Source: a virus (lineage: Duplodnaviria > Heunggongvirae > Uroviricota > Caudoviricetes). From it: DNA of 35,243 bases. A program made the position numbers and the translations under genes. The notes under the pieces are model-generated. The model did not search any database. It had not been told where the DNA came from and saw only the letters and a program-made list of their open reading frames with translations. Below are positions 2,811-26,983 of this stretch, one piece after another (position 1 is the first letter of the stretch; each line of letters begins with the position of its first letter). The stretch covers positions 1-35,243 of the IMG/VR virus record IMGVR_UViG_2737471821_000011; one strand, written 5' to 3'.

Positions 2811-2967
2811 TGAAACCTTGTTCATGTGATATTTTTCAAGTCGGCTTAACTTTCTCACTTAATCCAACCCTCTCTGAAAATTAATGCCAGCAGATAAAGC
2901 CATGCTGAAACAGAGGCCAGGAATAAGTACCATCCTGACCATTTGCTCCAGTGCCTTAGCAGCGCAC

Positions 2968-3216
2968 TCATGCAGCGTTGCTCACAGGACGATATACACG
3001 TTGCTGAACAGGAGGCTTTTTACCCTGGAACTCTGCCGGGCTTGCTGCCTGACGTTCATCAAGCCAACGCTCAACTTCATCACGGTTCCATGCGCAGCGT
3101 TTATCGGTGATATACCAGCGTTTAGGAAATTCCCCTGCGCGCTCCATACGGTCGATAGTGCTCCATGACAGTGGCACCACCGCCAGGAGTTCCTTCTTAC
3201 CTAATGCACCTTTCAT
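2968..3216 (-). CDS. AlpA-family excisionase-like DNA-binding protein
   Basis: 82 aa; KELLAVVPLSWSTIDRMERAGEFPKRWYITDKRCAWNRDEVERWL matches the AlpA/Xis winged-helix pattern (STIYR..., RAVRWRESEVEAWL). Confidence 0.7.
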   Translation of the reverse strand: MKGALGKKELLAVVPLSWSTIDRMERAGEFPKRWYITDKRCAWNRDEVERWLDERQAASPAEFQGKKPPVQQRVYRPVSNAA

Positions 3217-6480: not shown

Positions 6481-6495
6481 TTACCGTTGAGGTAA
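6481..6495. promoter_or_regulatory. Operator-like inverted repeat TTACC-GTTGA-GGTAA
   Basis: Perfect TTACC-N5-GGTAA just downstream of a putative -10 of the leftward early promoter (TTGACA at ~6518-6523 on the minus strand). Confidence 0.6.
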
Positions 6496-9665: not shown

Positions 9666-10010
9666 ATGAGAAAACAGATACAGGCTCTTGGTCGACTCAA
9701 AACAGGCCAGATGAACAAAACAGAATCTGCGTATTGCCAGCACCTTGAGCTGCGTAAACGTGCAGGGGAAATCGCCTGGTATCGATTCGAGGGTATCAAG
9801 CTGCGGTTAGCTGACAACACGTTCTATACGCCAGATTTCGCTGTGATGCTCGCCACCGGAGAGATGGAACTGCACGAAGTGAAAGGTTTCTGGACCGACG
9901 ACGCCAGGGTGAAAACCAAAGTCGCCGCAGATCAGTATCCGTTCCGAATCATCGGGGTAACGGTTAAGCCAAAGAAAGCAGGTGGTGGCTGGAACATCGA
10001 AGAGTTCTGA
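9666..10010 (+). CDS. Small PD-(D/E)XK-fold protein (DUF1064-like)
   Basis: 114 aa; YTPDFAVM...GEMELHEVKG gives a D...E-x-K nuclease-fold signature. Confidence 0.45.
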   Translation: MRKQIQALGRLKTGQMNKTESAYCQHLELRKRAGEIAWYRFEGIKLRLADNTFYTPDFAVMLATGEMELHEVKGFWTDDARVKTKVAADQYPFRIIGVTVKPKKAGGGWNIEEF

Positions 10011-12073: not shown

Positions 12074-12670
12074 ATGATGTCTGCTGAACCTAAAACCTAT
12101 AAACGCAAATCAACGCAATTTAAGCCACTAACAGCAATGCAGGAGGCTTATTGCCAGTCATACATCAAAACGCCTGAAAACCAGACTCAGGCAGCGATTA
12201 ACGCAGGATTCTCCCCAAATACAGCGGCAGTTAAAGCCAGTGTCATGATGCGCGATGAACGCATTCAAAAACGGATTGCCGAGTTGATGGAGGAGCGCAA
12301 CAAACGAATGCGCGTCAGTGCTGATTACGTTCTCATGCGCCTGGTGGAGATCGACCAGATGGACGTGATCGACATCCTCAACGACGATGGGAGCCTTAAA
12401 CCAATCCGTGAGTGGCCGAAAATCTGGCGCACTACGCTTAGTGGCTTTGATCTGTCATCGACCATCATGAACATGAACGAGGATTCGATAGAGACAATCC
12501 TCAAAAAAATTAAATGGCCTGACAAGGTGAAGAACCTTGAGCTGATTGGTAAGCATGTTGATGTCAACGCGTTCAAAGAACGTCTGGATGTTAATGTGAA
12601 TGTGACAATTGCTGATCGCATAGCAGCAGCCAGGAAGAGACTGAAAGAACGTCAGGATGGCAATCAGTGA
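12074..12670 (+). CDS. Terminase small subunit
   Basis: Position immediately upstream of, and overlapping (GTGA), the large terminase gene. Internal ATG chosen because the track ORF's N-terminal extension covers the terminator and operator. Confidence 0.6.
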   Translation: MMSAEPKTYKRKSTQFKPLTAMQEAYCQSYIKTPENQTQAAINAGFSPNTAAVKASVMMRDERIQKRIAELMEERNKRMRVSADYVLMRLVEIDQMDVIDILNDDGSLKPIREWPKIWRTTLSGFDLSSTIMNMNEDSIETILKKIKWPDKVKNLELIGKHVDVNAFKERLDVNVNVTIADRIAAARKRLKERQDGNQ

Positions 12671-14142
12671 CAGATACAGCGTTATCTCCTGAAGAGCAGT
12701 TAATCGAGGATATTGCAGGGTTCACTCACGATCCGCTTGGCTATGCCCTCTATGCGTTCCCGTGGGGGGAAGAGGGTACTGAACTGGCACATGCCACCGG
12801 TCCACGTCAGTGGCAGGCCGATGCGTTCCGAGAGATACGTGATCACCTGCAGAATCCAGAGACGCGCTATCAGCCGCTTATGCTGGCACGCGCTTCTGGT
12901 CACGGTATTGGTAAATCCGCATTCATCTCAATGCTGATCAACTGGGGCATGTCCACTTGCGAGGATTGTAAGGTCGTGGTGACCGCCAACACCGACAACC
13001 AGCTACGAACGAAGACCTGGCCGGAAATTATCAAGTGGTCGAACCTTGCTATCACGAAAGAGTGGTTTACCTGTACCGCTACCGCGATGTACAGCAATGA
13101 CCCTGGGCACGACAAGCGGTGGCGAGCTGACGCAATCCCCTGGTCTGAGCACAACACTGAGGCATTCGCCGGACTACACAACGAGCGAAAACGCATCATC
13201 GTGGTATTCGATGAAGCGTCGAACATTGCGGATCTGGTGTGGGAAGTTGCTGAGGGTGCGCTTACGGACGAAGACACTGAGATTATCTGGGTGGCGTTCG
13301 GAAACCCTACACGTAACACCGGACGTTTCCGCGAATGTTTCCGCAAATATAAACACCGCTGGAAAACTGCGCAGATTGACAGCCGAACGGTGGAAGGCAC
13401 TAACAAACAGCAGTTGCAGAAATGGGTTGATGACTACGGGGAAGACAGCGACTTCGTTAAAATCCGTGTGCGCGGCATATTCCCTGATGCATCTGAATTG
13501 CAGTTTATCCCTACCGGTCTTACTGATGAGGCAATGAAACGGGTGGTAACCGCTGCGCAGGTGGCGCATGCTCCGGTGATAATCGGTGTTGACCCGGCAT
13601 ATTCAGGCGTTGATGACGCGGTGATATACCTGCGGCAGGGGCTACACAGTAAGGTGCTGTGGACTGGCAACAAGACTACCGACGATCTGATTATGGCGAA
13701 GCGTATCGCTGACTTTGAAGACCAGTATCAGGCTGACGCGGTGTTCATCGACTTCGGTTACGGAACCGGTCTGAAGTCAATCGGTGACGGATGGGGTCGT
13801 ACATGGCAACTTGTTCCGTTCGGTGGCGCGTCTACTGACCCGCAGATGCTCAACAAGCGTGGGGAGATGTTCAATTCATGCAAGACATGGCTGAGGCTGG
13901 GCGGCATGCTGGATGACCAGGAAACAGCAGACGACCTGTCGGCGGCAGAGTACAAAGTTCGAGTGGATGGTAAAATCGTTATCGAACCGAAGGAAGATAT
14001 CAAGGAGCGGCTTGGGCGTTCGCCGGGTAAAGGCGATGCGCTACTGCTGACGTTTGCGTTCCCTGTGTCTAAGCGTCTGCGAATTCCCGGGCAGCAGAAC
14101 CAGCAAGGCAAGGCCATCACAGATTACGATCCCTATGCTTAA
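12667..14142 (+). CDS. Terminase large subunit
   Basis: 491 aa; Walker A-like RASGHGIGKS, Walker B-like IIVVFDEAS, nuclease domain at the C-terminus. Confidence 0.9.
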   Translation: MTDTALSPEEQLIEDIAGFTHDPLGYALYAFPWGEEGTELAHATGPRQWQADAFREIRDHLQNPETRYQPLMLARASGHGIGKSAFISMLINWGMSTCEDCKVVVTANTDNQLRTKTWPEIIKWSNLAITKEWFTCTATAMYSNDPGHDKRWRADAIPWSEHNTEAFAGLHNERKRIIVVFDEASNIADLVWEVAEGALTDEDTEIIWVAFGNPTRNTGRFRECFRKYKHRWKTAQIDSRTVEGTNKQQLQKWVDDYGEDSDFVKIRVRGIFPDASELQFIPTGLTDEAMKRVVTAAQVAHAPVIIGVDPAYSGVDDAVIYLRQGLHSKVLWTGNKTTDDLIMAKRIADFEDQYQADAVFIDFGYGTGLKSIGDGWGRTWQLVPFGGASTDPQMLNKRGEMFNSCKTWLRLGGMLDDQETADDLSAAEYKVRVDGKIVIEPKEDIKERLGRSPGKGDALLLTFAFPVSKRLRIPGQQNQQGKAITDYDPYA

Positions 14143-14192
14143 TCCGCTGGTTGGGATAATGTCGTTGATATCCTCTGATGAGGATAAAACAA

Positions 14193-14212
14193 AGCCAGCT
14201 CATCGGCTGGCT
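14193..14212. terminator. Bidirectional intrinsic terminator between the terminase and the opposite-strand gene
   Basis: Hairpin AGCCAGC-TCATCG-GCTGGCT with GTTTGT on the plus side and TTTGTTTTAT on the minus side; a second hairpin TATCCTC-TGAT-GAGGATA at ~14169-14186. Confidence 0.6.
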
Positions 14213-14216
14213 GTTT

Positions 14217-14228
14217 GTGACATGTCAC
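14217..14228. repeat. Perfect 12-bp palindrome GTGACATGTCAC (copy 2 of 3)
   Basis: Read directly; lies between the bidirectional terminator and the 3' end of the minus-strand gene. Confidence 0.8.
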
Positions 14229-14232
14229 GGTG

Positions 14233-14604
14233 TTATTGCTCGCTTAGCTTCTGCTTCAGCAAGTAACCTTCGAGCATCCAGATTTTGTTTACAGCATTCT
14301 GCCGGGCAATCTTCCGACCAATTTCTGCATCAAAGTTTTCCGGGCTTGCACAGGCGCTCTCTCCGGTGACGGTGAAGCCGTTGCGCAGCACCAGGACGCA
14401 GAACGTCAGCAGAGAAAGTGATTCGTGCGGCTGGTAGTTTACCTCTCCGCCAGTATGTTTCGCTTTTATGGCTTTGCCAAAGGCACCATCTTCTGCTGTG
14501 AAATATGCCTCCTGAGCAATAATGCCTTCGATATGGTCTGGCGTAACGCGCGGTGCCGTTTTGCCTTTCTCAACGATTTCTTTTTCGATTTGCTGGTCGT
14601 TCAT
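14233..14604 (-). CDS. Hypothetical phage protein (possibly N4-gp49/Sf6-gp66-like family)
   Basis: 123 aa; LRNGFTVTGESACASPENFDAEIGRKIARQNAVNKIWMLEGYLL resembles a conserved phage family. Family name from memory, low confidence. Confidence 0.5.
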   Translation of the reverse strand: MNDQQIEKEIVEKGKTAPRVTPDHIEGIIAQEAYFTAEDGAFGKAIKAKHTGGEVNYQPHESLSLLTFCVLVLRNGFTVTGESACASPENFDAEIGRKIARQNAVNKIWMLEGYLLKQKLSEQ

Positions 14605-14718
14605 AATCTCACCTTAAAAAAAATGCCCGGCGAACCAGGCGAACTGGAAGCAATGAGTTATGCCTTCCGTGGCTGTACTGGTTTACAGCATGAAGTCATC
14701 GCAATGGCGTCCTGCTGT

Positions 14719-14760
14719 AAAAAGGGCGGTGGTAGTCCTTCAAGGGAAACCATCACCGCC
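14719..14760 (-). terminator. Intrinsic terminator downstream of the tRNA
   Basis: On the minus strand GGCGGTG...CACCGCC extended imperfect stem followed by CUUUUU (forward A run ~14719-14723). Confidence 0.55.
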
Positions 14761-14803
14761 AAGCCTCTGGAACTTCTGGCATCACGGTCCTTAGGCGTGA
14801 TTC

Positions 14804-14880
14804 TGGCGTGGCATGCAGGATTCGAACCTGCGACCAACCGCTTAGAAGGCGGTTGCTCTGTCCAACTGAGCTAATGCCAC
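14804..14880 (-). tRNA. tRNA-Arg (anticodon UCU), phage-encoded, CCA encoded
   Basis: Hand-folded cloverleaf on the minus strand: acceptor GTGGCAT/ATGCCAC, D-arm GCTC-AGTTGGACA-GAGC, anticodon arm ACCGC-CTTCTAA-GCGGT (anticodon TCT), variable TGGTC, T-arm GCAGG-TTCGAAT-CCTGC, discriminator G, CCA. Confidence 0.85.
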
Positions 14881-15202
14881 AACGCTGAGAGCACTTAGCC
14901 TGTTAAGGCGCCACACTTTGTCGCGGCTCCATAAATGCTCTCATCGTTGTACCCTCGTCTCTTCCGAGGCGTCACACCGAATCGCCGGGATGGTGAATCC
15001 CCGTGCGCGGAATAAAACCGCTCGACTTGCACATTCCGGCTACCTGGTTCGTTTGCCCGAGCAAGGGAGGGTGCCCCTTAAACGTATCCAGACCGCTATC
15101 GGCGCATGTGCCATACGCCGTACTGCTCAAAATAAAAGCTCACTCCACCTGTTCAATTTAACGACAAGCCAGTCAGGTTAATAACCGGAATGAACTCTTT
15201 GG

Positions 15203-15217
15203 TTACCTGAAAGGTAA
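15203..15217. promoter_or_regulatory. Operator-like inverted repeat TTACC-TGAAA-GGTAA
   Basis: Perfect copy about 90 bp upstream of the first head gene, followed by ATGTGGTT at ~15262-15269. Confidence 0.6.
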
Positions 15218-15307
15218 TAATTCGTGCGTTAAATGTCAGCTATCTACGATAAATAAATCATATGTGGTTAAATTGGTAATAATTTAATTGCGTACGGAGT
15301 CATTGAT

Positions 15308-15514
15308 ATGTGCATGGGTAGCTCACCGTCAGTGCCTGCAACACCAGAAGTTCAGGCAGCACCACAGGAGCAGGATGCCGCCGTTGTTGATGCCCGCGAC
15401 GAAGAAACTCGTCGCCGTCGCGCTGCTGCTGGTCGTAGTTCTACGCTGCTTACCGGTTCTCAGGGTGACACATCAACCGCTAATACCAGCGGTAAAACGC
15501 TGCTTGGTCAGTAA
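15308..15514 (+). CDS. Hypothetical small protein preceding the portal gene
   Basis: 68-aa ORF with GGAG RBS; Ala/Thr/Arg-rich. Confidence 0.4.
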   Translation: MCMGSSPSVPATPEVQAAPQEQDAAVVDARDEETRRRRAAAGRSSTLLTGSQGDTSTANTSGKTLLGQ

Positions 15515-15528
15515 CCGGAGTCATTGAA

Positions 15529-17208
15529 ATGGCGGAAACAACTAAAGAGCGATTGAACAAACAGTTCGCACAACTTGAAAGCGAGCGTCAGTCGTTCGAG
15601 CCGCACTGGCGCGAGTTGAGTGATTACATCAACCCGCGTGGTTCCCGCTTTCTGACTTCTGAGGTCAACCGTAACGATCGACGCAATACACGAATTATTG
15701 ATTCGACCGGGACTATGGCAGCGCGCACTCTCGCCAGCGGCATGATGTCAGGCATCACAAGCCCCGCGCGTCCGTGGTTTCGCCTGGCTACGCCAGATCC
15801 TGAAATGATGGATTATGGCCCTGTTAAGTTGTGGCTTGAGGCGGTGCAGAACCGCATGAACGATATGTTCAATAAGTCGAATCTCTATCAGTCGCTGCCG
15901 CAGTTATACGGAAGCCTCGGCACATACAGCACTGGTGCAATGGCAGTGCTGGAAGATGACGAGGACATTATTCGCACAATGCCATTCCCGATAGGCAGTT
16001 ACTACCTGGCTAACTCACCTCGTGGAAGTGTGGACACCTGTTTTCGCAAGTTCTCTATGACTGTTCGTCAGCTTGTTCAGGAGTTCGGGCTAAATAACGT
16101 CAGCGAATCCGTAAAAAGCATGTGGGAAAGCGGCACCTACGAGAAGTGGATCGAAGTGATGCATTCGGTTTACCCGAACATTGACCGCGATACATCGAAG
16201 CTGGATAGCAAGAACAAGCCATTCAAATCGGTTTATTACGAGGTTGGTGGCGATAACGACAAGTTGTTGCGTGAGTCCGGATTCGATGAGTTTCCAATTA
16301 TGGCTCCGCGCTGGGAAGTTAACGGCGAAGATGTTTATGGATCATCATGCCCGGGTATGCTGGCGCTTGGACCTGTTAAGGCATTGCAGCTTCTCCAGAA
16401 GCGCAAGTCGCAGTTGATTGATAAAGCCACCAATCCGCCGATGGTTGCTCCGACTTCCCTCAAGAATCAGCGCGCCTCCCTTCTTCCTGGCGACATCACG
16501 TATATCGATCAGATTACTGGTCAGGATGGCTTCAGGCCTGCTTATCTGGTTAACCCCAGTACAGCAGATTTGGTGGCAGATATTCAGGACACTCGTCAAA
16601 TCATTAACAGCGCCTACTTTGTCGATCTGTTCATGATGTTGCAGAACATCAATACCCGCTCGATGCCTGTTGAAGCGGTGATCGAAATGAAAGAAGAAAA
16701 ACTTCTGATGTTGGGGCCGGTTCTGGAGCGTCTGAACGACGAATGTCTTAATCCTCTCATTGACCGCGCTTTCTCGATGATGGTGCGTAAAAACATGTTG
16801 CCGCCACCGCCTGACGCGATGGAAGGCATGCCCCTGAAGGTCGAATACATTTCCGTCATGGCTCAGGCGCAGAAGTCTATCGGCCTGTCCAGTCTGGCGT
16901 CCACGGTTAACTTCATTGGTCAACTTGCGCAAGCGAAACCAGAAGCTCTCGACAAACTCAACGTTGATCAGGCGATCGATGCATTCGCTGATATGTCTGG
17001 AGTGTCTCCAACCGTCATTGTTCCGCAGGAACAGGTTGAGCAGGCTCGCCAGCAACGGGCACAGCAGCAACAGCAGCAACAAATGATGGCGATGGGGATG
17101 GCGGCGGCACAGGGTGCCAAGACGCTAAGCGAAGCTAAAACTTCGGATCCGAGTGTTTTGTCAGCTATGGCGAATGCAGTTAGTGGTCAGGGTGGGCAAT
17201 CACAATGA
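15529..17208 (+). CDS. Portal protein
   Basis: 559 aa; position after the terminase and before scaffold and capsid; Gln/Ala/Met-rich C-terminus (QQQQQQMMAMGMAAAQG) as in podoviral connectors. Confidence 0.75.
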   Translation: MAETTKERLNKQFAQLESERQSFEPHWRELSDYINPRGSRFLTSEVNRNDRRNTRIIDSTGTMAARTLASGMMSGITSPARPWFRLATPDPEMMDYGPVKLWLEAVQNRMNDMFNKSNLYQSLPQLYGSLGTYSTGAMAVLEDDEDIIRTMPFPIGSYYLANSPRGSVDTCFRKFSMTVRQLVQEFGLNNVSESVKSMWESGTYEKWIEVMHSVYPNIDRDTSKLDSKNKPFKSVYYEVGGDNDKLLRESGFDEFPIMAPRWEVNGEDVYGSSCPGMLALGPVKALQLLQKRKSQLIDKATNPPMVAPTSLKNQRASLLPGDITYIDQITGQDGFRPAYLVNPSTADLVADIQDTRQIINSAYFVDLFMMLQNINTRSMPVEAVIEMKEEKLLMLGPVLERLNDECLNPLIDRAFSMMVRKNMLPPPPDAMEGMPLKVEYISVMAQAQKSIGLSSLASTVNFIGQLAQAKPEALDKLNVDQAIDAFADMSGVSPTVIVPQEQVEQARQQRAQQQQQQQMMAMGMAAAQGAKTLSEAKTSDPSVLSAMANAVSGQGGQSQ

Positions 17209-23925: not shown

Positions 23926-24470
23926 TGTGCGATCCGGTTATTGCTGGTGGCGCAATGCTCGCCATGAGTGGCATTCAGGCATACACCCAGTACCAACAGG
24001 GAAAGTATGCCTCGAAGGTTGCAGAAGCGAACGCAGATATAGCCACAGCTCAGGCAAATGATGCAATAAACAGAGGTAACGCTGAAGCTGAGCAACGGCG
24101 CAGAGAGACCCGACAGCGGCTTGGTACACAGGCGGCGACAATGGGGGCTACCGGCGCTGATTTATCTACAGGTAACGCGCTGGATATATTTGGCGACACT
24201 GCCCAGTTTGGCGCTCTTGATTCTCTGACGACGGTGAATAACGCGCAACGCGAGGCTTACGGTTATCAGGTTCAGGCTGCCAACTATAAAGCAGAAGCCA
24301 GTTCAGCCCGTAAACAGGGGAATGTGGGAGCAGCAACAACATTGCTCACTGCGCCTCTGAAGGCATACGGTGCGTACCAGATGTTTGGTGGGACGTGGAG
24401 TCCGTTTACTCAAAGCACTCCTGCACCAATCGGGGCAGCAGCAGGAACCAGATTACCCGGAGGATTATAA
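23925..24470 (+). CDS. Internal virion protein (Ala/Gln-rich)
   Basis: 181-aa ORF, TAATG overlaps at both ends. Confidence 0.4.
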   Translation: MCDPVIAGGAMLAMSGIQAYTQYQQGKYASKVAEANADIATAQANDAINRGNAEAEQRRRETRQRLGTQAATMGATGADLSTGNALDIFGDTAQFGALDSLTTVNNAQREAYGYQVQAANYKAEASSARKQGNVGAATTLLTAPLKAYGAYQMFGGTWSPFTQSTPAPIGAAAGTRLPGGL

Positions 24471-26983
24471 TGCCAGTCGTACCAACAGTATCCGGACGTC
24501 AGGTTGAGAGCCGTGGAGTTCAGTCAGCAGGCTTGCAGACGTTTTCTCAGCCAGGTATTGGTGATGCTTTTGTTCGGGCAGGGGCAGAGGCAATTGATGT
24601 TTTTGGTCAGGCAAAACAGCGTGCCAATATCGCTCTGGCTCAGGAGGCATCTCTTAACCTCAGTCAGATAAGCAGCGATCTGTTGAATAACCCTGAAACA
24701 GGTTTGCTTAACCTGAAAGGGAAAAATGCTATTGGAAAAGGTCAGGAGTATACGCAGCAGTTTGATGCTCAGATCGAACAACTGGCTATGTCGCTGCCGG
24801 ATGAACAGGCTCGTAATGCTTTCATGCAGCAGGCGCAGCAGCAGCGTATTCAGTTCACTACGCAGGCTGGGCGGCACGAGATAGGGCAAATAAATGCCTA
24901 CGAAGAAGGCCAGTTTCAGGCGACGCTGCTGAACAATGGTAAAAATGCCGCAGCATTGTATGGCGACAACGCCGCATACGTATTGGCTAATAAGCAAACT
25001 TTCCAGCAAATTGAGGATTACGGCATTGCGCATGGCTGGAGCGACGAGCAAATACAGGCCAAGAAAATCGAGTTTAAAGAGAAGGTTGCTGATGCCGCAT
25101 TGTCCCAGTGGTCGGCAAACAATGCGACCGCATTCATCCAAAGTAATGGCGAGTTAAGTGATACTGCTGCTGGAGCTCGCCGTGCTGTAGCAGATAGTGA
25201 CTCTTCCGAGCGTGCCCGTGGCATACGCAACAATAACCCAGGAAATCTCGAATACAGCAAAACTAATCCGTGGGTAGGCCAGACCGGTGATGATGGTCGA
25301 TTTGCGAAATTCGAAACACCTGAACACGGGATTCGTGCATTAGGGCGGAACCTGATGTCGTATCAGAGGCAGGGTATTGATACCGTCAGTGAGATAATTA
25401 ATCGCTGGGCACCGCCTACTGATAAAAATGACACTATGTCGTATATCAAAGCAGTGTGCGAACAACTTGGCGTTTCTGCTGATGAGCCTCTCGATGCATC
25501 TAATCCTGATACCCTGAAGGCGCTTTGTGCAGCCATTATCCATCATGAGAACGGTAGCCAGCCATACAGTGATCAGCAGTTAACTGCTGGTGTCAGTGCA
25601 GCACTTGGTTTATCAACAATTCCAACCAACACCAAACGCTATACCGGTAATGCAGCATTCGATGCGGCATCTCCTGAGGCGCAGGCAAGTTTTATGCGAC
25701 AGGCGGATCAACTGCGTCGGCAGCAGCAGGCTGAATATAAAACGATGATTGACAGCCAGGTTCGCGATGCGACAGCTGCGTATATGCGTGGCGTTGAATT
25801 TCCTAACCCACCTGGTGAGGATGATTTTATTGCAGCTTATGGTGTCAGAGAAGGAAACCTGCGATATACCGAGTTTAAGAATACGCAGATCGCCGGACAG
25901 TATATAGGTTCTTTCCGCAACATGCCGACAAGCAGCATTACAGCATATGTTGAGCAATTACGCCCGGATACTGGTGAGACAGGGGAGGGGTATGCGGCAC
26001 GCGCAGCTCTTTATGACAACGTTGTTTCGGCTGCAAATCAGGTGATAAAGCAGCGGCAATCGGATCCTGTGCAGTTCTCTCTTGCCGCCGGACAGGCTAA
26101 GCCTATCGACATGAGCAATAAGGATAACTTTGGACAGAGCGTTGCCTTGCGTGCCGCTCAGGTCAGTGACCTTGCCAAGTCATATGGCACTCCACTGACG
26201 TTCTTTTCCAAAGACGAGGCCAATCAGATCGGTGTTTTCTTTCGTGATGCGCCCGTTTCCCAACAGGCAGCATATCTCGATACCATCAGGCAAAGCACTG
26301 GCGGTGGGCAGGTGTATATGTCAGCACTACAGCAGATCAGTGCCAACGCTCCATCTGCTGCCGTTGCCGGGATACTGATGGATAAGCCTGGTGGTATTTT
26401 GGCAGAAAAAAACTGGTTTAATCCGGATGTTTCCGTGTCTCCTGAAACCGCTGCGCAGACAATTCTTGCTGGCGCGGCGGCTCGTAAAGGTACTGATGAT
26501 TCGAAAGGTATTCCGATGCCTAAAGATGCTGATCTTCGCCTTGAGTTTTCTGACATGGTGAAGGATGCATTTGCTGGTGATGCTCAGGGGGCATCAATGG
26601 CATACGAGATCGCAAAGGACTATTACGCTGGTGTGATGGCGAAAAAAGGCGTGGTATCAGGCGAAATTGACAATGATATCTGGAAACAGGCTGTTAACGT
26701 AGCTACAGGTGGCGTGCATGACTATAACGGAATGGGGAATGTTCTTTTGCCGTGGGGAATGTCTGCAGAGCAATTCGATAAGCAGGTTAATCAGGCTTGG
26801 AATGAACAAGTTGTCGGCACAGGGATAAAAACACCGCCTGGTCAGTATGGTTTGCAAAGTTACGGCGATAGTCAGTACCTAGTAAAACTTGGGACTGGAT
26901 ATCTGCTGAAGGATGATGGTTCTCCTGTTGTTCTTGATCTGACACAGAAGCGTCAGAGATTCTCCGGAGATATTCCGCAATGA
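24470..26983 (+). CDS. Large internal virion / ejection protein
   Basis: 837 aa from the ATG at 24470 (GGAGGA RBS); contains a conserved-looking block ARGIRNNNPGNLEY...RFAKFETPEHGIRA. Confidence 0.5.
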   Translation: MPVVPTVSGRQVESRGVQSAGLQTFSQPGIGDAFVRAGAEAIDVFGQAKQRANIALAQEASLNLSQISSDLLNNPETGLLNLKGKNAIGKGQEYTQQFDAQIEQLAMSLPDEQARNAFMQQAQQQRIQFTTQAGRHEIGQINAYEEGQFQATLLNNGKNAAALYGDNAAYVLANKQTFQQIEDYGIAHGWSDEQIQAKKIEFKEKVADAALSQWSANNATAFIQSNGELSDTAAGARRAVADSDSSERARGIRNNNPGNLEYSKTNPWVGQTGDDGRFAKFETPEHGIRALGRNLMSYQRQGIDTVSEIINRWAPPTDKNDTMSYIKAVCEQLGVSADEPLDASNPDTLKALCAAIIHHENGSQPYSDQQLTAGVSAALGLSTIPTNTKRYTGNAAFDAASPEAQASFMRQADQLRRQQQAEYKTMIDSQVRDATAAYMRGVEFPNPPGEDDFIAAYGVREGNLRYTEFKNTQIAGQYIGSFRNMPTSSITAYVEQLRPDTGETGEGYAARAALYDNVVSAANQVIKQRQSDPVQFSLAAGQAKPIDMSNKDNFGQSVALRAAQVSDLAKSYGTPLTFFSKDEANQIGVFFRDAPVSQQAAYLDTIRQSTGGGQVYMSALQQISANAPSAAVAGILMDKPGGILAEKNWFNPDVSVSPETAAQTILAGAAARKGTDDSKGIPMPKDADLRLEFSDMVKDAFAGDAQGASMAYEIAKDYYAGVMAKKGVVSGEIDNDIWKQAVNVATGGVHDYNGMGNVLLPWGMSAEQFDKQVNQAWNEQVVGTGIKTPPGQYGLQSYGDSQYLVKLGTGYLLKDDGSPVVLDLTQKRQRFSGDIPQ

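Follow-up and report, generated by a model that had tools for sequence, protein, structure and literature searches.

A widespread conserved RNA abutting a phage tRNA-Arg gene and its possible role in early transcription

A virus sequence of 35,243 nucleotides (IMG/VR record IMGVR_UViG_2737471821_000011; the whole stretch is referred to here as the window) carries, between its terminase and portal genes, a minus-strand transfer RNA (tRNA) gene, tRNA-Arg(UCU), preceded by about 320 bp that an initial annotation had left unassigned. This upstream sequence is no mere spacer but a conserved structured RNA that abuts the tRNA, ending within 1–3 nt of its 5′ end, and it is the most notable part of the interval. 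The RNA occupies 14881–15123 on the minus strand, with a core of about 170 nt and about 245 nt for the core together with a closing stem, P6; it is real, conserved, encoded on the minus strand and widespread, and the family is apparently undescribed. The description of the tRNA in the initial annotation is correct but ordinary, and the interval is worth attention for its RNA family. From a comparison of genomic settings we tentatively propose that the RNA is a cis-acting, put-like antiterminator leader of early transcripts, a reading that we offer as possible rather than probable.

A conserved and covarying RNA fold

The elements of the RNA and the adjoining tRNA in the window are listed here.

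14947–15123, minus strand: RNA core (covariance model R1, 160 bits, E 3e-45)
15120–15100, minus strand: P1 hairpin of the core
15044–15026, minus strand: near-invariant 19-mer of the core, GGUAGCCGGAAUGUGCAAG
15002–14986, minus strand: P4 hairpin, its loop pseudoknotted with CGGUGUGAC at 14979–14971
14969–14953, minus strand: P5 hairpin, loop GAAGAGA
14878–14951, minus strand: P6, a long closing stem with a variable insert (RNAalifold, covariation)
14804–14880, minus strand: tRNA-Arg(UCU), 77 nt, CCA encoded (ARAGORN, Rfam tRNA model, argU comparison)

The core also contains a helix, P2, that encloses a variable hairpin. Covariation was evaluated with 102 distinct cores aligned by sequence alone and an explicit structure of four helices and two pseudoknots. 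In these homologues 98.5% of the cells are paired in the proposed structure, compared with 26–44% when the partners are slid by one to three columns, and changes on both sides are seen in 10 of the 31 pairs (273 cells), which none of 500 shuffles reach; the covariation score is 0.259 versus 0.105 in the shuffles. At columns 8:20 of P1 the pair is GC in 73 cores and AU in 29, at columns 34:94 of P2 it is UA in 54 and CG in 48, and P4 switches at columns 146:158 (CG 69, GC 29) and at columns 148:156 (AU 64, CG 23, UG 14); three pairs switch in P5. Where the P4 loop (UCACCA) forms a pseudoknot with the downstream CGGUGUGA, the pair is CG in 80 cores and AU in 22 and is never unpaired, and a candidate second pseudoknot, between the GCAC of the P1 loop and the GUGC of the 19-mer, is invariant across the alignment. 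G.U pairs that are present always or mostly (9:19, 32:96 and 6:22) are possible only on the minus strand, and the strand of the RNA is therefore fixed. The fold is compact and stable (z = −2.7), and about 50 positions are invariant from phages of E. coli to a phage of Stenotrophomonas. The 19-mer varies by single substitutions only, as determined by a search with a different conserved block that recovered the same family. A likeness of GAAGAGA and GGUGUGA to the tRNA-elbow motifs of T-box stem I was considered and dropped, the GGUG being engaged in the covarying pseudoknot.

The closing stem P6 is indicated by RNAalifold with 22 representatives, in which positions 186–206 pair with 326–345 with several compensatory changes. 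A long-range pairing of the 5′ segment that the same program proposed was dropped in favor of the local P1 hairpin with its perfect G-C/A-U covariation. The 3′ strand of P6 (AAGUGCUCUCAGCGUUGUG) overlaps the first three nucleotides of the tRNA, and a cut by RNase P at 14881/14880 would thus make the 3′ end of the RNA. The 5′ end may lie further out than the model, as a conserved GGAGUGCGCUUCCAGGUGUGAGCAGUA is kept just upstream of the core in Uetakevirus-type loci (L006, L009 and L022), where it resembles the 3′ strand of a P6-like stem; in the window this site is degenerate, at about 15125–15160 on the minus strand.

The roughly 320 bp upstream of the tRNA contain no credible open reading frame (ORF), and stops are present in all six frames; their description as GC-richer holds only relative to the AT-rich 15100–15300 segment (GC content 0.39), since 14800–15100 is at 0.555–0.57 and the flanking coding DNA at 0.53–0.56. 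A protein-coding reading of 14881–15200 was rejected on these stops, on insertions and deletions that are not multiples of three, and on the differing frames of the 'hypothetical proteins' annotated in relatives. The copies in the window, in the lambdoid phage PhiR63_1 and in a Stenotrophomonas phage have common invariant blocks of 18–19 nt and no shared reading frame. Coding sequences (CDSs) have been annotated over the RNA or antisense to the tRNA in several records, including phiV10 (L001, 2672–2923), TL-2011b (14239–14490), mEp460 (gp37), PhiR63_1 (XSB43258), BUCT709 (WCS67766), Tyrion and BUCT554, and these 'hypothetical protein' CDSs are very likely mis-annotations.

Distribution and repressor-controlled settings

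A search for distant DNA matches showed that window positions of about 14877–15121 match the lambdoid PhiR63_1 and a Stenotrophomonas siphophage, both of which lack a tRNA at that place and have the RNA beside a repressor gene. The 19-mer is present in at least 120 IMG/VR contigs and in representative genomes of about 20 species, nearly all of them Enterobacteriaceae or Erwiniaceae. By blastn the RNA is found in 83 phage records, where it is unannotated or lies under a short 'hypothetical protein' CDS; the carriers include phiV10-like and SPN1S-like phages, P1, P7, D6, SJ46 and RCS47, Stx2c and some Stx2a phages, mEp460, mEp390, cdtI, Ayreon, 2H10, and phages of Klebsiella and Enterobacter. 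Of 5426 complete E. coli genomes, 1840 carry it by blastn (1920 chromosomal and 554 plasmid sites, with a median of one per genome), and among the matches listed it has no annotation in E. coli. There is one copy per phage, R1 giving a single strong match in each carrier, and no second, putR-like copy was found in the carrier phages. A scan of the upstream region against Rfam 15 yielded no family matching the RNA at the gathering threshold or at E ≤10 for the window, and none at E ≤0.5 for four other contexts. We found no description of the RNA in the literature, including searches by the invariant sequence and on the phiV10 tRNA, prophage structured RNAs, put-like antitermination and the P1 ban operon, and it is unmentioned in the Minerva preprint, the P1vir/hfq preprint and two Breaker-lab surveys.

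We compared 141 distinct loci, taking the strand of the RNA as reference, and these fall into three main settings. The first, to which the window belongs, is that of Uetakevirus-type phages, in which the RNA is followed by tRNA-Arg or by a hairpin resembling an acceptor and D-arm, then by an intrinsic terminator (T1), a spacer, a second terminator (T2), and the Shine-Dalgarno sequence (SD) and AUG of a variable cargo gene. The parts of this unit in the window that lie outside the RNA and the tRNA are as follows.

15203–15217, no strand: perfect dyad TTACCTGAAAGGTAA, an apparent repressor operator, upstream of the RNA (TTACC-N5-GGTAA motif count)
14719–14760, minus strand: T1, intrinsic terminator 44 nt 3′ of the tRNA (conserved across Uetakevirus-type loci)
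14616–14640, minus strand: T2, strong intrinsic terminator, GCCUGGUUCGCCGGGC A U8, abutting the cargo SD (terminator scan)
14602–14615, minus strand: conserved SD (AAGGUGAG) and AUG of the cargo slot (alignment conserved up to the AUG, divergent after it)
14233–14604, minus strand: cargo ORF of 123 aa, N4 gp49/Sf6 gp66 family (Pfam PF13876, E 8.6e-35)
14184–14212, no strand: T3, hairpin with U runs on both strands (terminator scan; a terminator is annotated in the phiV10 record)

An alignment of 26 non-redundant Uetakevirus-type loci shows a conserved order of T1, two spacer hairpins, T2, SD (AAGGUGA) and AUG, followed by immediate divergence into unrelated genes. T2 has the form GCCCGG-UUCG-CCGGGC-A-U7-8 in this alignment, and its stem covaries among relatives (GCCCGG/CCGGGC, GCCCAC/GUGGGC and GCCCGC/GCGGGC) while the run of seven or eight U residues is kept. 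The hairpin and U run noted 3′ of the tRNA in the initial annotation is real and corresponds to T1 (GGCGGUG...CACCGCC-CUUUUU), which is kept in relatives and has homologues in the lambdoid leaders. The cargo genes include members of the gp49/66 family, Tad2-like anti-Thoeris proteins (E 4e-26), coiled-coil membrane proteins and others; PADLOC returned only weak coiled-coil matches on the cargo proteins, and their membership of defence systems was rejected on that account. In most of these loci there is no promoter between T1 and the AUG, and the cargo must therefore be expressed through two terminators. T2, SD and AUG together have the appearance of an expression site into which accessory or anti-defence genes are placed as cassettes. 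More generally, 30 of 45 non-redundant loci have a sense-strand intrinsic terminator in the 700 nt downstream of the RNA, compared with 8 of 45 for the antisense strand.

The second setting is that of P1-type phages, in which the space from trnI to ban is occupied by a core lacking P6 that starts 15 nt after the tRNA. The P7 record annotates the ban operon under the C1 operator Op(ban), and the RNA is inside this operon. Phages related to P1 have tRNA arrays (Ser, Thr, Tyr and Arg) upstream of the RNA and a Tad2-like gene downstream, and both P6 and T1 are absent from the P1-type copies. The tRNAs that adjoin the RNA are all on its strand, tRNA-Arg on the 3′ side and tRNA-Ile/Met(CAU) and the arrays on the 5′ side, and there is no tRNA within 1.5 kb of the RNA in 82 of 127 loci. 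Two further stretches in the P7 ban operon (L127, 4233–4317 and 4005–4120, minus strand), both without annotation, give matches to RNA models: one scores 46.6 bits with the tRNA-Sec model (cutoff 47), with ARAGORN calling a tRNA-Ser(tga) in the same area, and the second is STnc100-like at 43 bits (cutoff 47).

The lambdoid setting is the most diverse. Here a cI-type repressor gene, coding for a helix-turn-helix and S24 peptidase protein of one of several distinct families, ends 105–170 nt upstream of the RNA on the same strand. In PhiR63_1 and mEp460 the cI stop codon is followed by a strong terminator, two operator dyads over the −35 and −10 elements, the RNA, a 129-nt tRNA-like fold, a T1-type terminator and the first early-left ORF; the half-sites of the dyads are as in the cI-cro region, and in these leaders such half-sites are found only upstream of the RNA. 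The order of cI stop, terminator, operators and promoter, and RNA is seen in at least five immunity types, and in four of six further types tested, stretches that recur in the cI-cro region are concentrated in the 100 nt or so before the RNA. At L054, one of these types, the promoter and operator (GGTGTTGACC-N17-GATACT, with TATCAC/GGTGATA half-sites) resemble the early-left promoter PL and operator OL1 of lambda. An ORF-free gap of 670–780 nt separates cI from the early-left genes in the RNA-bearing lambdoids, and no N-type gene is annotated or was detected in mEp460, PhiR63_1, Stx2a_1447 or 2H10, nor by Pfam on the downstream ORFs. In a comparative study from 2025 the early antitermination mechanism of N-less lambdoids is given as unknown, and put-like RNAs are speculated upon (PMC12315714).

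The motif TTACC-N5-GGTAA occurs 12 times in the window, at 6481, 6543, 7255, 7303, 9586, 9648, 12042, 12060, 15203, 32406, 33473 and 33853, where 0.61 occurrences would be expected by chance. Clusters of sites coincide with the repressor/cro and early-left promoter regions and with other candidate early promoters; there are sites in front of the gene at 9666 and upstream of the isrK and C4 RNAs, and the motif is apparently the operator of the prophage repressor, scattered over many promoters as is the case with P1 C1. The start of the small terminase gene contains two of the dyads, and another two immediately precede the gene at 9666, which begins ATG-AGA. The operator at 15203–15217 ends exactly where the interval marked in the initial annotation ends, implying early, repressor-controlled expression, and we infer that the promoter overlaps it or lies just downstream. 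With an operator, Op(ban) or a PL context present in three unrelated groups of phages, the RNA is placed within a repressor-controlled early transcript at all loci whose control region could be read.

The sequences that follow P6 in loci without a tRNA have tRNA-like features. In several of these (L004, at about 2870–3000 on the minus strand, L012, L054, L006, L069 and others) the sequence after P6 is GUGGUGAAU-GCGC-AGGCUGAU-GCGC, similar to an acceptor strand plus D-arm and with a covarying stem. The 129-nt fold of PhiR63_1-type loci has an acceptor-like helix (GUGGUGA/UCACCAC) and a T-like arm (CCGG-AGAUCAGCA-CCGG), and L012 has a sequence like an anticodon arm (GCGGA-CUUUUAA-UCCGU). ARAGORN made no call on the tRNA-like folds after P6, and the full fold was set aside as a general feature since it was found strictly only in PhiR63_1-type loci, using a finder that was too strict and missed two real tRNAs; at the other loci conservation is limited to the hairpin like an acceptor 5′ strand and D-arm. 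The lambdoid PL leaders (L012, L054, L010/L011, L033 and L134) contain further conserved modules 200–600 nt past the core, including GCUGUGUGUAGUCUUGG just before T1, a second P6-like stem (…AGCGCAC…GUGCGCUUCCAGUUGUG) and, at L033, a second P5-like hairpin; the structured leader may consequently be 500–700 nt in length.

The tRNA-Arg and other features of the window

The window corresponds to a temperate podophage like phiV10 and TL-2011b, in Uetakevirus or a close relative, and is 95.9% identical to phiV10 over 14153–15307 and 100% identical to TL-2011b across the RNA. The tRNA is flanked by TerL (12667–14142) on one side and by a small ORF (15308–15514) and the portal gene (15529–17208) on the other. 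The initial annotation located the tRNA, with an opposite-strand gene, properly between terminase and portal; its view of them as one simple insertion does not hold, as this is a conserved module in which the cargo ORF differs between phages. T3 ends the cargo gene and probably also marks the end of TerL.

The tRNA itself was characterized correctly, with the complete 77-nt gene and UCU anticodon on the minus strand within the morphogenesis cluster matching the ARAGORN call at 14804–14880(−), anticodon tct, the sole tRNA call in the window. It scores 73.3 bits with the Rfam tRNA model RF00005 (gathering score 29), covering model positions 1–71, and folds as a canonical cloverleaf with a seven-nucleotide anticodon loop (CUUCUAA) and an encoded 3′ GCCA. 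Comparison with the host gene supports the suggestion that the stems differ: the tRNA is identical to K-12 argU at 64 of 77 positions, the acceptor stems being GUGGCAU/AUGCCAC in the phage and GCGCCCU/AGGGCGC in argU, and the anticodon stems ACCGC/GCGGU and ACGAC/GUCGU respectively. As all of the stem differences are compensated, this appears to be a functional paralogue, neither a copy nor a fragment of the host gene. It is intact, not identical to argU, and flanked by terminase and portal genes, and it is a cargo tRNA rather than an attachment-site remnant; because phages of the phiV10 type are reported to attach at guaA rather than at a tRNA gene (PMC9782041), this conclusion is right, though not new. 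The core of the phiV10 attachment site does not occur in the window.

The early AGA codons pointed out in the initial annotation are present at codon 2 of both the gene at 9666(+) and the gene at 31714–32346(−), the latter having 10 AGA codons in a total of 210. Using crude gene calls (43 ORFs, 10,455 codons), we counted 6.6 AGA and 4.8 AGG per 1000 phage codons, which is 10.1% and 7.3% of arginine codons, set against E. coli figures of about 2 and about 1 per 1000. The tRNA is predicted to be a normal decoding tRNA that reads AGA for an AGA/AGG-rich phage. It is already annotated at the same position in O157 typing phages 9 and 10, the Salmonella phages SPN9TCW and SPC32H/N, and phiv142-3, and is without annotation in the phiV10, TL-2011b and ZX5 records. 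It is of the same kind as other phage tRNA-Arg(UCU) genes, such as argN/argO of the Stx phages, and there is nothing material to separate it from these; what is undescribed is its fusion to the upstream structured RNA and its place in a repressor-controlled unit. Alone, it is a textbook cargo tRNA in public records and adds nothing new.

Two other RNAs of Rfam grade lie elsewhere in the window, a C4 antisense RNA at 33252–33335(−) (66 bits) beside isrK at 33360–33436(−) (67 bits), with an operator dyad at 33473–33487 just upstream of the pair. The arrangement is reminiscent of the immI antirepressor control module of P1, here in a podophage. The isrK and C4 pair is also present in the lambdoid PhiR63_1 (L004, 5350–5538).

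Candidate functions of the RNA

We suggest that the minus strand from 15217 to 14184 would constitute one early transcription unit under the prophage repressor, in the order operator and promoter, RNA of about 245 nt, tRNA-Arg, T1, spacer hairpins, T2, SD and AUG, and exchangeable cargo. The RNA would work in cis, modifying the polymerase by which it was transcribed, and the modified polymerase would pass T1 and T2 in the window; in the N-less lambdoids it would pass the T1-type terminator between PL and the early-left genes. The transcription start, co-transcription of the tRNA, release by RNase P at the 5′ end of the tRNA and antitermination itself are the steps that we infer here. This proposal accounts for the nutL/putL position of the RNA in N-less lambdoids, for the intervening terminators and for the design of the Uetakevirus cassette. 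No adjacent protein is common to all of the contexts, and together with the approximately 50 invariant positions this fits a conserved host partner such as RNA polymerase.

The closest parallel is with the put sites of HK022, which are published as RNAs of about 70 nt with two stems (PMC9378689). In lambdoid phages the RNA resembles put in that it directly follows a repressor-controlled early-left promoter and precedes intrinsic terminators, and its carriers lack N and encode no dedicated protein partner nearby. The two differ in that HK022 has two copies of a short two-stem element, whereas this RNA is of about 170 nt (245 nt with P6), is pseudoknotted and is present in one copy; unlike put, it is also found beside tRNAs in P1-like and epsilon15-like phages. 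Homology with put was rejected, R1 having no match at E ≤1 in HK022 24000–31000, which includes PL and PR. The RNA also holds the same place in the PL leader as lambda nut, where boxA and boxB act with N and the Nus factors, but the N gene is absent from its carriers and it is far larger and more conserved than the boxB hairpin. A boxA sequence (at least 10 of 13 positions) occurs in only 3 of 119 loci and was rejected as a general feature; L042 and L158 match at 11 of 13, and L085, which belongs to a subtype lacking P6, has a perfect 13-of-13 rrn-type boxA (UGCUCUUUAACAA) after a hairpin, about 37 nt past the core. The RNA may represent a second class of processive antiterminator that needs no protein, evolved independently of HK022 put; made as early transcripts begin, it would cause polymerase to disregard intrinsic terminators, with release by RNase P while polymerase-bound a possibility. 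We regard this more specific proposal with slightly more reserve than the general one.

Several considerations weigh against antitermination, which is read from the layout. At a few of the Uetakevirus-type loci an operator and TATAAT dedicated to the cargo follow T2, and at P1-type loci a search for terminators between the RNA and ban found none. A scan for consensus promoters identified none with at least 9 of 12 matches upstream of the RNA in the window. HK022 has both putL and putR, and with one copy per phage the rightward operon would need another solution. The tRNA or tRNA-like element directly 3′ of the RNA suggests precise excision, a trait commoner in free stable RNAs than in leaders, and in the window a terminator-proof polymerase would also ignore T3 and continue in antisense through the terminase gene. 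In P1 the ban operon is moreover dispensable in the laboratory (PMC10695390), and phenotypes of the RNA may accordingly be conditional.

An alternative explanation, which is less likely in our estimation but which we take seriously, is that the RNA is a stable noncoding RNA that works in trans: tRNA-processing enzymes would release it, and early in lytic growth its partner would be a conserved host component or a defence system. RNase P would cut where the downstream tRNA or tRNA-like element begins, 3′ tRNA processing would serve where the tRNA is upstream, T1 would be the end of an operon of RNA and tRNA, and the cargo would be expressed by leakage. This agrees with the ends of the RNA: the P6 3′ strand ends within the first three tRNA nucleotides, putting the RNA 3′ end at or next to the tRNA 5′ end, the P1-type tRNA ends 15 nt before the RNA, and in tRNA-less loci P6 is followed by the covarying acceptor and D-arm-like hairpin or, in PhiR63_1-type loci, the 129-nt fold. 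The block from the RNA to T1 is a conserved unit, neighbors are often accessory or anti-defence functions (Tad2-like proteins, tRNA arrays, tciABC), and a single copy per phage suits a trans-acting product. GOLLD and ROOL provide a precedent as structured RNAs of phages and prophages, of unknown function, often located beside tRNAs and probably co-transcribed with them (PMC5737381). They are similar to this RNA in prophage location and tRNA adjacency but have no homology to it by Rfam, are three to four times larger without its defined early-promoter context, and are known from Firmicutes and rumen samples, whereas this RNA is in phages of Enterobacterales and one phage of Stenotrophomonas. 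The C4 RNA of P1 and P7 and the CI RNA of P4 are likewise phage regulatory RNAs with ends made by a tRNA-processing enzyme (RNase P), but they too lack homology, and they are antisense RNAs of about 80 nt with known targets. A trans-acting RNA leaves unexplained why lambdoid early-left genes lie behind T1 with operators only upstream of the RNA, and why a conserved SD and AUG should directly follow T2 without an intervening promoter; in addition, blastn matches are only to prophage and plasmid copies, arguing against a detectable similarity to a universal host RNA that it might mimic. Antitermination and a trans-acting product can be combined if the released RNA stays bound to polymerase.

The position of the RNA near the 5′ end of early transcripts, its physical coupling to tRNAs and its compact, stable fold could also reflect a cis-acting processing or stability element, i.e. 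a protective 5′ leader or an aid to tRNA folding and maturation that leaves polymerase behavior unaltered. We consider this improbable: a covarying pseudoknot and some 50 invariant nucleotides, of which many fall in loops and junctions, go far beyond the needs of a protective hairpin, and most of the loci examined for neighbors (the 82 of 127 noted above) have no tRNA close by. Slightly more improbable still is a ligand-sensing riboswitch or self-cleaving ribozyme gating early phage expression. Its size, pseudoknots and conservation are like those of aptamers and ribozymes, terminators are located downstream, and L085 and L158 have a hairpin and U-rich tract straight after the core; the downstream genes are nonetheless unrelated in function (ban, tRNA, early-left and anti-defence cargo), the terminators are 110–580 nt away with no overlap with the core and with P6 and the tRNA in between, and at a threshold as loose as E ≤10 the ribozyme and riboswitch models of Rfam still give no match. 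There is very little to recommend the view that the locus is only an ordinary cargo tRNA for rare AGA codons and the upstream sequence a promoter and leader. The intact tRNA, the AGA and AGG frequencies and the AGA at codon 2 of some genes are all in keeping with it, and it is correct for the tRNA itself; it does not accommodate the covariation of the RNA, the conservation of the RNA without a tRNA in lambdoid phages and the Stenotrophomonas phage, or its location in P1 on the other side of a different tRNA.

A third of complete E. coli genomes, as well as the model phages P1 and P7, thus carry a large, strongly covarying RNA family that has no Rfam entry. The conserved cassette of operator, RNA, tRNA, two terminators, SD and AUG is useful for finding accessory and anti-defence genes and as a synthetic-biology part. 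At the place of lambda nutL and HK022 putL in phages without N, the RNA is a concrete candidate for the means of passing early terminators. If this proposal is correct, N-less lambdoid phages would have in this RNA their missing device for early antitermination, and P1-like and epsilon15-like phages would have recruited it for the expression of tRNA and anti-defence cassettes; and if the RNA does act on RNA polymerase, its invariant nucleotides and pseudoknots would constitute a new RNA solution to the control of transcription.

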